A DNA stretch of 64,000 bases from positions 3,534,001-3,598,000 of the forward strand of contig CM068755.1 of assembly GCA_035084275.1 (NCBI GenBank), written 5' to 3'. The translations under genes were made by a program, and so were the position numbers. Shown here piece by piece: positions 560-63,712 of this stretch. Source of the DNA: Hydrolagus colliei. Taxonomy: Eukaryota. Each line of letters begins with the position of its first letter. Positions within the stretch are counted from its first letter, which is position 1. A model generated the notes under the pieces. That model saw only the letters and a program-made list of their open reading frames with translations. It did no database searches and was not told the DNA's origin.

Positions 560-830
560 ACGTAAAATACATGTACTGCAGATGCTGGAAATCTGAAAGA
601 AAAACAGAAGTCGCTGGAAACACTCATTAGGTCAGGCAGCGTCTATGGAGAAAGGAAAGGTGAGTCCATTTTTCGGGTCCACAACCTTTCGGCAGAACTG
701 GTTCTAACACGATGAGGAGTTTTGATAACATAAAAACGAGAGTAATCTTTTCCACTGGTGAGTGAGTGAGTCAGTGACTGGACAGCACAACTGCCGAGTG
801 TTCCCAGCGATTTGTGTTTGTGTTTCAGAC
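560..830. mobile_element. Penelope-like (PLE) terminal-repeat relic with inverted arms and decayed hammerhead-like core
   Basis: Shark-type motif gatgctggaaatctgaaagaaaaacagaagtcgctggaaacactc...ggtcaggcagc. Arm 596-640 is inverted at about 790-829. Minus strand reads CAGTTCTGCCGAAAGGTTGTGGACCCGAAA at 662-700. Confidence 0.7.
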
Positions 831-5490: not shown

Positions 5491-5794
5491 CCTGCCAGGA
5501 CTTAACGGTATCCAGTCTAGACTGAGAGTTCCATGTGTGCCACTAACACGTGAAAACTCCCGTATATTGGAGTAGATTTTGCATACTCTCCCCAGAGGGA
5601 TGCTCCCAGTTTACCTAATTCCAAGAGCCAAGGTGCACTTTGTATTTCACGGGTAAACGCAGCAGCCTAAAGGGATCAATAAAAATATGTGGGGAGGGGG
5701 CTGGGTGAGCTGAGGCAATCCTCTTGGCTCTGAGCATAGTAACTTTGATGATGTGCTGTTGCACAGAGATCCTTGCATATAATATATAATACTG

Positions 5795-6120
5795 TAATAA
5801 TATAATCCTTGCATTTGATATAGCTCTTTTCACATCTTCTAGGCATCTCAAAGCGCTTCACAGAATATACTGTAAATATACTGTAAAGTGAATTGACTGC
5901 ATATTTGTGGGCGAAAACGTGACAGCCAATTGCGCATTACAGCGTCCCACAAACAGTCGTAGATTGAAACTGACCAATTTATTATAGTTTTTTTTTGAGG
6001 GATTATTATTAGACGTGTGGAGTAAGGAAGTTTGTCCGAGGTTTCAGACTGACCTGCCTGGATTCGAAATACAGATCTCACGTTTGTAAGGCGAATGCTC
6101 TAACCATTGAGCTACAGGAC
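5795..6120 (-). mobile_element. SINE-A short variant, full length
   Basis: A box TAGCTCAATGG, B box ATTTCGAATCC, L2-type tail, (ATT)n; 11-bp internal duplication at 5864-5885. Confidence 0.92.
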
Positions 6121-7074
6121 TACAGGATTCCTTCATGCTGTCAGCTCGTGCTGCCAAAGCCGTCACACTTGGGGGGCAAGAGGACCAACACATCCTAATC
6201 TCAGCCAAGTGTGTTCGTTGCAGTGGATTCTTGCCTGTAAACCTCACACCGGCTGTTCCTAGATTAGCAACATCACACACAGCGAGGATCTCTGCACCGC
6301 TCAGTACAACACCTACTGAGATCCTCATACGTAAGTGCGAAATTAGGATTGTCTGTCTGCGTTACGTAACCACTTGCCCAAAGTAAATGAGGCATTTTAT
6401 TCAGACCCTCTCACCCCCTTTACGTAGCTGCAGCCTTGGTTTTGTGTGTGTGCGTATCAAATGAATTGTTACTTGATGGATTAGCTGTTGGGTTGAACTC
6501 TCTCAAGGACAAAGTGAAAGCCTCCAAACTCCCCGAGGCCGACAGTTTCTGTAGATTGTTAGCCAGGCTCCTGCGAGAAAACTGAAAGTTCGCATACACT
6601 ATTTTCCTCACTAGGAGACGTGCTACCTAAATCCACCAACCCTGCTAGTCTGCAAATCAATAAGCGCCTTGGGACATCTTCCCGATTTGAAGGTTGAAGC
6701 CAAGAGGACCCGTTAGACCAAGACAGTAGAACACGGAGACCAAAATAATAATGGCCATTTGCTTTGCGGCTGTTTGTTACTGCGCAAACGTGGTGACCAA
6801 CACTGGCCTACAGATGCACGGTCTCTACACGTCACCATAAAATCCAGTGTCCAGATCAAGTCGTTTACTGAAGCAGAGACGCAGAGGAGTGTTACGTTCT
6901 TTTAACTTTGTGATTACATTCACTTTCCCCAGATTAACATTTCAAACTCTCCTGTGTGACTTTGTGCTCTGCTGTACATACTTTGTAACCATCCATTCTG
7001 TTTTGTGTACTGATGTTACCTGTTTTGGCATCCCAAGGTCTCGACAAATGAGAAATCCATTGTACCTCATCAGC

Positions 7075-28917: not shown

Positions 28918-29352
28918 CCATACTGTAGCTCAGTGGTTAGAGCATTAGTATACAAGCTAGAAACCTGGGTTCAATCCCAGGCAGGGCAAAACCTTGGGCA
29001 AGTTTCCTTACTCTACAAGCCTAATAATAATCCCTCAATAAAAACAATAATAAATTGGTCATTTCAATCCACGACTGTTTGTGGGGACACTGCTGTGCGC
29101 AATTGGTTGCCGCGTTTCGCCTACAAATATACAACAACTTTGATTTATATAAAGCCCTCCATGCCAGACTGCGTCTCAGAGCGCTTCACAGTAGCAGATC
29201 CCGGGAACAAGCCAGGGGCAAGAGTAGAAAGGTGATCAAAGGCGCGGTTTACAGTCAATACAGTCAATTCACTGCACATTCTGTGAAGCGCTTTGAGATC
29301 GTCTAGAATACGTGAAAAGTACTATATCAAATGCAAGGATGATTATCTTTAT
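28918..29352 (+). mobile_element. SINE-A short variant with nested L2b tail
   Basis: tgtagctcagtggttagagc...gttcaatcccagg head and complete tail. Confidence 0.92.
29134..29249 (-). mobile_element. L2b 3' tail nested in a SINE
   Basis: Reverse complement of the 52410-52520 tail; splits the SINE at aatataca|gtcaa. Confidence 0.8.
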
Positions 29353-37255: not shown

Positions 37256-37705
37256 TAAATAATAATAATAATCCTTGCACTTGATGTAGTACTTTTCACA
37301 TCTTAATGAGTCTCAAAGCGCTTCACAGAATATACTGTAAAGTGAAACAAAACACAAAATACTACAGATGCTGGGAATCTGAAACAAAAACAAAAGGACG
37401 AAGGGTTGTAGACCCGAAACGTTGACTCTTTTTCCTTTCTCCATGGATGCTGTTTGACCTGCTGTGTTTCCCCAGCAACTTTTGTTTTGGTACTGTAAAG
37501 TGAATTGACTGTATATTTGTGGGCGAAACGTAGCAGCCAATTGCGGACAGCAGTGACCCACAAACAGTTGTGGATTGAAATTACCAATTTTTATTATTAT
37601 CTTTTTTTTGGAGGAATTTTTGTTAGGCGTGTGGAGTAAGGAAACTTGCCCAAGATTTCGCCCTCCGCTTGTAAGGCGAGTGCTCCAACCACCACGCTCC
37701 AGGAG
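37256..37705 (-). mobile_element. SINE-A short variant hosting the Penelope insert
   Basis: Consensus is restored after removing 37347-37504. Confidence 0.9.
37347..37490. mobile_element. Penelope-like insert with internal inversion and 14-bp TSD, nested in a SINE
   Basis: Same family as 560-830. Flanked by TACTGTAAAGTGAA at 37333-37346 and 37491-37504. Contains GACGAAGGGTTGTAGACCCGAAACGTTGACTC. Confidence 0.8.
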
Positions 37706-45395: not shown

Positions 45396-45713
45396 GTCCT
45401 GCAGCTCAATGGTTAGAGCACTCGCCTTACAAGTGTGAGACCTGTGTTCGAATCCAGGCAGGTCAGGGCGAAACCTTGGACAAGTTTCCTTACTCCACAC
45501 GCCTAATAATAATCCCTCCCCAAAAAATCACGATAATAAAATTGTTCATTTCAATCCATGACTGTTTGTGGGACACTACTGTGCGCAATTGTCTGCCACG
45601 TTTCGCCTACAAATATACAGTCAATTCACTTTACAGTATATTCTGTGAAGCGCTTTGAGACGTCTAGAAGACGTGAAAAGCGCTATATCAAATTCAAGGA
45701 TTATTATTATTAT
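45396..45713 (+). mobile_element. SINE-A short variant, full length (used here as reference copy)
   Basis: gtcctgcagctcaatggttagagcactcgccttacaagtgtgagacctgtgttcgaatccagg head (tRNA-Ala-like), tail stem-loop, (ATT)n. Confidence 0.95.
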
Positions 45714-63259: not shown

Positions 63260-63712
63260 ATAATAATAATCATAATAATAATAATCCTTGCCTTTTGATA
63301 TAGTGCTTTTCACGTCTTCTAGATGTCTCAAAGCGCTTCACAGAATATACTCTCATGCTGAGTTTTGCCCACAAATATAGTCAATTCACTTTACAGTATA
63401 TTCTGCGAAGCGCTTTGAGACGGCGATAAGATGTGAAAAGCGCTATATCAAATGCAAGGATTCTTATTGTTATTAAAGTGAATTGACTGTACATTTCTGG
63501 GCGAAACGCGAAAGCCAATTGCGCACTGCAGTGTCCCACAAACAGTCGTGGATTCAAATGACCAATTTTATTATTGTGATTGTGTTTTTTGAGGGATTAT
63601 TATTAGGCGTGTGGAATAAGGAAACTTGCCCAAGGTTTCGCCCTGACCTGCCAGGATTCGAACACAGGTCTCACACTTGTAAGGCGAGTGCTCTAACCAC
63701 TGAGCTACAGGC
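63260..63712 (-). mobile_element. SINE-A short variant with nested opposite-strand SINE tail (63352-63473)
   Basis: Split at aatatact|taaagtg; ends about 70 bp upstream of the IgV acceptor. Confidence 0.92.

Follow-up and report, generated by a model that had tools for sequence, protein, structure and literature searches.

The two-armed insertion described here is a dead, 5'-truncated piece of the pLTR, the end repeat, of an abundant endonuclease-bearing Penelope-like retrotransposon (PLE), and its sister copies suggest how such pieces are made. We consider it probable that the two nicks of a staggered 14-bp cut each served as primer for reverse transcription (RT), at a pair of fixed U-rich start sites separated by about 35 nt, likely on one uncleaved RNA. 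The insertion lies in a stretch of 64,000 nucleotides of the Hydrolagus colliei genome (contig CM068755.1, forward-strand positions 3,534,001 to 3,598,000), termed the window. Element positions carry a plus or minus sign and are counted from C3 of the hammerhead CUGA core, which is set to 0.

The focal insertion is real, recent and of a known kind of structure. It comprises 144 bp between two identical 14-mers inside a tRNA-headed SINE (Table 1), the strand of which was deduced from the tRNA-like head of the copy at 5779-6124. The 14-mer has ten further exact occurrences in the window, each single and each with the same SINE flanks left and right. These 10 of 10 uninterrupted SINE copies are paralogous empty sites. 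Since they carry the 14-mer once and the host aligns as two halves, the duplication arose at insertion and the 14-bp repeat is a true target-site duplication (TSD), as the initial annotation had proposed. The same annotation had described two contiguous pieces of one element. This layout is right, but the arm junction (37396|37397) lies one base further right, and the arms overlap by 10 nt, or by 12 nt if 37489-37490 are included, not by 9 nt. Judging from sister copies, these two bases are best read as +94/+95 with one substitution. Each arm holds sequence that is absent from the other. We infer that the plus-strand nick served as primer for the tail-bearing arm, at the outer (tail) start site, and the minus-strand nick for the tail-less arm, at the inner start site.

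Table 1. Features of the focal insertion and its surroundings (window coordinates).
Feature	Position	Strand	Basis and remarks
Target-site duplication, left copy	37333..37346	.	14 bp, host SINE sequence; 14 bp is the family mode
Tail-bearing arm, element +84..+133	37347..37396	-	reverse complement matches young copy L011 at 49/50 bases
Tail-less arm, element +2..+95	37397..37490	+	37397-37488 (+2..+93) match L011 at 91/92 bases
Hammerhead remnant, minimal type I	37397..37427	+	sequence; intact motif of sister copies forms stems I and II
Target-site duplication, right copy	37491..37504	.	repeat of left 14-mer; empty-site flanks
Host tRNA-headed SINE, split copy	37262..37659	-	halves 37262-37346 and 37491-37659, self-BLAST
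Second, older single-arm copy of the same element	574..701	-	tailed; 78-89% like the focal copy

The second copy in the window has its 5' end near -6 and no clear TSD. The host SINE, about 340 bp long, is abundant, with many fragments in the window (self-BLAST), and most of the tRNA-like heads found with Rfam (6049-6121, 28926-28980, 45396-45465, 63647-63711) belong to it. Its site at 37324-37513 has been hit repeatedly, also at loci L083, L093, L096, L111, L126 and L183; 5 of 90 tail ends fall in this SINE site compared to 60 of 4,160 background positions (p 0.01). The recurrent site is flanked by a 7-bp inverted repeat, and the target preference is modest.

Judged by its sequence, the parent is an endonuclease-bearing, Neptune-like Penelope element with more than 1,500 copies. 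The 25-nt tail motif has 1,501 and the 26-nt inner motif 2,516 exact matches in the 1.0-Gb genome, compared to 0 for either reversed control, and the plus-strand arm has 1,090 candidate matches, 40 of which were scored. One locus, L008, is 99% identical to the focal plus-strand arm and carries a GIY-YIG frame upstream that ends at -272. The frame is on the same strand as the arm, which fixes the RNA strand, and it is the strand that had been predicted. In L008 this pLTR lies downstream of the ORF. Penelope-like origin, claimed from the outset, is borne out by the RT and GIY-YIG motifs and the linker of longer copies. Among 2,864 genome candidates for the GIY-YIG frame, 150 were scored; the DKG, YIDD and YIGET motifs occur in this order in L133 and L151, where both ORFs are interrupted by stops and frameshifts. 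This is the layout of EN+ Penelope-like ORFs, RT followed at the C terminus by a GIY-YIG endonuclease. Pfam recovers RVT_1 in two of four fragments (E 1.4e-5 and 0.0022) and GIY-YIG (E 0.0019), all below the curated cut-offs. Upstream of the GIY-YIG motif, L151 has a CX4CX2C linker. A CX2-5CxxC linker between RT and EN is described for the Neptune clade, and Nematis also has a linker motif (PMC8557442). With Pfam scores under these thresholds and the linker as the basis for assigning the clade, "Neptune-like" is provisional. In 8 of 30 loci holding the N-terminal region, the sequence continues from the pLTR past +135 into the ORF; the tail hence constitutes the first part of the unique region, and it is also a degenerate repeat of the sequence preceding the inner start. 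Together with the downstream pLTR of L008, these loci place a pLTR at both ends of full units. In two units, L156 and L171, the upstream pLTR reaches back to -123 and -284 and exceeds one unit in length, which needs a tandem or circular template. L159, L168 and others contain, at about +150..+175, a pyrimidine tract with a terminal AG immediately upstream of the probable start codon of the ORF, a possible acceptor of a 5' intron.

The anatomy of the arms is regular across the family. We mapped 90 tail-anchored loci, from the first 100 listed of the 1,501 tail-motif matches and all on one contig (C1), as well as 30 loci picked by a motif that occurs in either kind of arm (from 2,516 matches), which represent 24 distinct insertions. 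Tail arms end at +125..+135 in 90/90 anchored copies. An inverted piece was called in 47 of the 90 loci, by an automatic procedure in which 1-4 nt of microhomology blurs the arm ends and some short inverted arms are missed, and 41 of the 47 end at +86..+109. The remaining six end at -195, +16, +24, +36, +57 and +126, and the last of these looks like a distinct insertion nearby. A TSD of at least 10 bp was found in 35/41 two-arm copies versus 18/49 other loci of this sample, and a second TSD search recovered some of the inverted short arms that automatic calling had overlooked. TSD length is 12-17 bp with a mode of 14 bp (18 of 38 two-arm copies). All 12 complete two-arm insertions of the motif-common sample, four of them shared with the tail-anchored sample, consist of one tailed and one tail-less arm. 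The other insertions among the 24 are one with a short inverted fragment only and 11 single arms ending at either site. Since each of the two sites is also the end point of single arms that have a TSD to themselves, the inner end (about +95-100) and the outer end (about +132-135) are real priming sites, both fixed and internal. The start sites are U-rich and the target ends A/T-biased; poly-A was found at none of the tail ends of mapped copies.

Twin priming in the style of L1, proposed in the initial annotation, is supported as regards priming from both target nicks but not as the rule for the family. The inner start is fixed, and the arms overlap by at least 40 nt in 33 of the 41 two-arm copies. 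An overlap of at most 15 nt occurs in only 4/41, so the abutting geometry of the focal copy is a minority class. Junction sequences vary between copies, and many use short palindromic microhomologies around the core. Such junctions, together with the variants that paired arms have in common, would suit self-priming, in which one cDNA, or an antisense template as proposed for rotifer head-to-head palindromes (PMC3846280), folds back at a short palindrome and copies itself. A fold-back arm copies only sequence already present in the first cDNA. The explanation consequently fails for abutting copies, where each arm has sequence that the other lacks, as in the focal insertion with its 10-12 common nucleotides and likewise in L045, L059, L099 and L107, and the single arms that end at either site with a TSD of their own also speak against it. 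The present data favour two primers, and we regard fold-back as a very improbable account of the family, though it could still hold for some fully overlapping copies. In three loci (L034, L042, L112) the arms switch from about +16..+20 back to the core and leave out stem II, and the first 10-15 nt recur as short repeats at junctions; both features are consistent with a hairpin forming in the template RNA. L110, L125 and L105 are multi-piece insertions with further inversions in the ORF or 3' UTR, and in L110 the pieces nearly abut at about -200, resembling variable-site twin priming.

With two primers, the arms could have been copied from one RNA or from two. Of 155 variable positions, 129 are identical between paired arms, compared to a mean of 64% and a maximum of 80% among shuffled pairs (0 of 2,000 shuffles reach the observed value). 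Paired arms have 19 rare variants in common and differ at 122 positions. The agreement and the common rare variants indicate that both arms come from the same source sequence. Taken alone, they do not tell a single RNA molecule apart from a pair of transcripts made at one locus, nor from conversion of one arm by the other at a later time. Tail arms stop nine times at +90..+101 versus seven times over +46..+89 (p 0.005, with the bin set once the data were known); such an excess is expected if the outer polymerase meets the inner primer on the same RNA. The focal tail arm ends at +84, just past this cluster, where 0 of 81 ended in +79..+89. If instead each subunit of a protein dimer carried its own transcript of one source locus, the extensive overlap of most copies would need no strand displacement, transcripts of one locus would likewise share variants, and the idea would sit well with minimal hammerheads, which are thought to act as RNA dimers (PMC4209133). 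The focal abutting geometry would then be chance early termination. By itself, such a model leaves both the strict pairing of tailed with tail-less arms and the excess of tail-arm stops at the inner start unexplained, and we hold it to be unlikely. One uncleaved RNA is the likely template for both arms.

The 5' ends of the arms are as characteristic as their starts. Among tail arms reaching +1, 35/46 stop within -9..+1 (Fisher p 4e-28), and so do 21 of 26 inverted arms. In a third sample of 30 loci anchored at -4..+16, eight of which are shared with the tail-anchored sample, 22 stop soon upstream, 13 of these 22 at -4/-5, while 8 continue upstream. Genome-wide, the -16..+4 motif has 741 matches versus 1,150 for the -4..+16 motif. 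Since these 8/30 arms continue and 741 matches of the upstream motif remain, other templates exist as well. The units that run from pLTR to ORF begin at the pile-up in two of eight cases (-6, -3), further upstream in two (the -123 and -284 units) and downstream in four. The pile-up coincides with a CCAGTYC motif at -6..0 that fits the initiator consensus YYANWYY, with its A at -4. The simplest reading of the pile-up is a putative transcription start at the 5' edge of the hammerhead. An internal promoter has been described for the Drosophila Penelope element (PMC2377424). Reads of other organisms from four RNA runs fall on both strands of L156, with no position where many molecules begin or end. 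An extra G before -4, which could derive from a cap, occurs in 4 of 8 stops, too few to use. A splice acceptor (CAG after a pyrimidine tract, -5..-3) was also considered as the cause of the pile-up; it is the position where the Drosophila intron ends (PMC4209133). It was judged less likely because in several single-arm copies, inspected by eye, the TSD abuts -5..-3 and no additional exon sequence intervenes.

The prevalence of short arms with a common beginning at an initiator-like motif could also point to a separate short hammerhead element, with solo pLTR copies as the source of its transcripts and mobilisation in trans, in line with the short non-autonomous ribozyme-bearing family of the initial annotation. 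Solo copies could be transcribed, and hammerhead-bearing non-autonomous PLE derivatives exist (10.64898/2026.07.22.740005, PMC4209133). However, at three diagnostic positions short arms (CCC 18, CTT 5, CCT 4, TTT 4, other 4; n=35) and ORF-reaching arms (CCC 10, CCT 7, TTT 4, CTT 3, one incomplete; n=25) carry the same four variant types, junctions vary from copy to copy, and the arm maps of the 90 loci contain no short tandem arrays. Because the variants of short copies recur in ORF-bearing ones, a separate non-autonomous family need not be invoked; by sequence the short copies track the autonomous lineage, and we consider an independent short element highly unlikely, although solo copies may be mobilised in trans. 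We rather lean towards short copies being run-offs from the 5' pLTR of the element's own mRNA, the 5' end of which would be the probable start at CCAGTYC.

From G5 onwards, the focal hammerhead remnant consists of G5-A9, an extra A, a 5-bp stem II, GAAA, the palindromic ACGU and the 3' strand of stem I. The junction has removed C3, U4 and the 5' strand of stem I, as had been noticed initially, so the remnant is predicted to be inactive. An Rfam scan of the window returned no hammerhead at the gathering threshold and four hits, all tRNA-like. Intact family copies have the core (CUGANGA / GAAA / NUH), stems I and II and the palindromic stem III of minimal type I hammerheads, and in addition an extra base after A9, G10.1-C11.1, a palindromic 15.2-16.2 and a 4-bp stem I. 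In the commonest motif of the loci, stem II has 5 bp and stem I is AGUC or AGUU with GACU, pairing either way. The predicted fold of L011 shows stems I and II at a stability not above shuffles (z -0.26), and neither the insert strands nor the intact pLTR fold clearly better than shuffles (z -0.26 to -1.47). Cleavage is predicted after GUU at 37423|37424. The annotation had concluded from the 27 nt retained upstream of this site (+2..+28) that the template was uncleaved there. The nucleotides are indeed present, and the conclusion is supported, on other grounds: the 27 nt alone are no proof, because a cut and re-ligated circle keeps them too, but 5' ends are not in excess at the cut site (+29; 7/68 vs 13/135 in neighbouring bins). 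The end distribution thus supports a template uncleaved at the predicted hammerhead site. Cleavage in another register just upstream of CUGA was rejected by inspection, as stem I cannot form there.

Integration may thus proceed as follows. A protein dimer would hold one RNA with one subunit at each start motif, a step to which we give cautious preference. The inner cDNA would usually run to the RNA 5' end, probably the transcription start at CCAGTYC with A at -4, and from this it would follow that short copies are probably run-offs. The outer cDNA would either stall near the inner start, as in the focal copy, or displace the first cDNA, so that about 100 nt are duplicated, as in most copies. 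The two cDNA ends would then be joined head to head, with C3-U4 trimmed in the focal copy. In its most general form, which we offer tentatively and would not yet rely on, Penelope integration would be obligate asymmetric twin priming: on a single uncleaved mRNA, a dimer would occupy a duplicated pair of U-rich motifs, 35 nt from each other in the 5' pLTR, and extend primers at the two nicks of a staggered 14-bp cut until the template ends, at a transcription start exactly on the 5' edge of the hammerhead. If true, this would account for the inversion of the pLTR, for a tail on one side only and for the thousands of hammerhead stubs that stand alone, and abutting copies like the focal one would mark collisions between two polymerases. 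The family also suggests that many of the solo minimal hammerheads in fish genomes are insertion by-products rather than a separate ribozyme element. The focal copy itself is inert, and its family is a usable natural record of the transposition mechanism. The 2024 in vitro study of PAc, the Poseidon element of Anolis carolinensis, leaves the mechanism open after the first step (PMC11167929). Fixed arm ends, strict tail asymmetry and the sharp 5' limit lead to specific predictions, namely on one RNA or two, a start at -4 and cleavage not being needed, which are directly testable in the existing reconstituted system.

Much of this has precedents. The standard PLE structure comprises inverted 5'-truncated copies and a one-sided tail of 30-40 bp (PMC8557442; PMC3846280), and the sampled loci combine such an arm and tail with a TSD. 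Like the EN+ PLE insertions described there (PMC8557442; Pen2a_Av, PMC3846280), they have a head-to-head arm, a tail at one end (about 35 nt here), a TSD and a hammerhead in the pLTR. Unlike those insertions, the focal copy is only 144 bp long with nearly abutting arms, and the TSD mode here is 14 bp compared to 8-10 bp in the rotifer examples of these papers. In vitro, PAc nicks and extends both strands and is predicted to dimerise; its RT starts at two internal sites bounding the tail, and unprocessed RNA is used (PMC11167929). The family described here is similar in its two internal starts that bound the tail, AT-rich targets, extension on both strands and uncleaved RNA. It differs in that the parent has a Neptune-type cysteine linker, and in that the starts are U-rich with A/T-biased target ends, while those of PAc lie in an AC-rich stem-loop without homology (PMC11167929). 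In that paper, as far as consulted, the two starts are not assigned to the two strands of one insertion. L1 twin priming shares the order of TSD, inverted 5' piece, 3' piece and TSD, and a second primer that anneals internally (PMC2912911). The contiguous, nearly non-overlapping arms of L1 are found in the focal copy and not in the family, and in contrast to a 3' poly-A first priming site and a variable second one, the inner start is fixed, the outer start is also internal and without poly-A, and most copies duplicate about 100 nt. The minimal type I hammerheads described from metazoan PLEs (PMC4209133) are matched by intact copies of the family, while the focal copy is without part of the core. 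Non-LTR retrozymes are defined as tandem repeats (10.64898/2026.07.22.740005), whereas copies here are dispersed as single or inverted arms, and the arm maps of 90 loci contain no retrozyme-type repeats with a complete hammerhead per unit. A literature search, with most subscription papers outside the searched set, returned no paper on twin priming in Penelope elements, none that assigns two starts to the strands of one insertion and none that reports a 5' pile-up. Both the layout of the insertion and the use of uncleaved RNA as substrate have been reported before (PMC8557442, PMC3846280, PMC11167929). New in detail are the 12/12 pairing of tailed with tail-less arms, the variants common to paired arms, and the 5' pile-up at -9..+1, at an initiator-like motif and away from the ribozyme cut.
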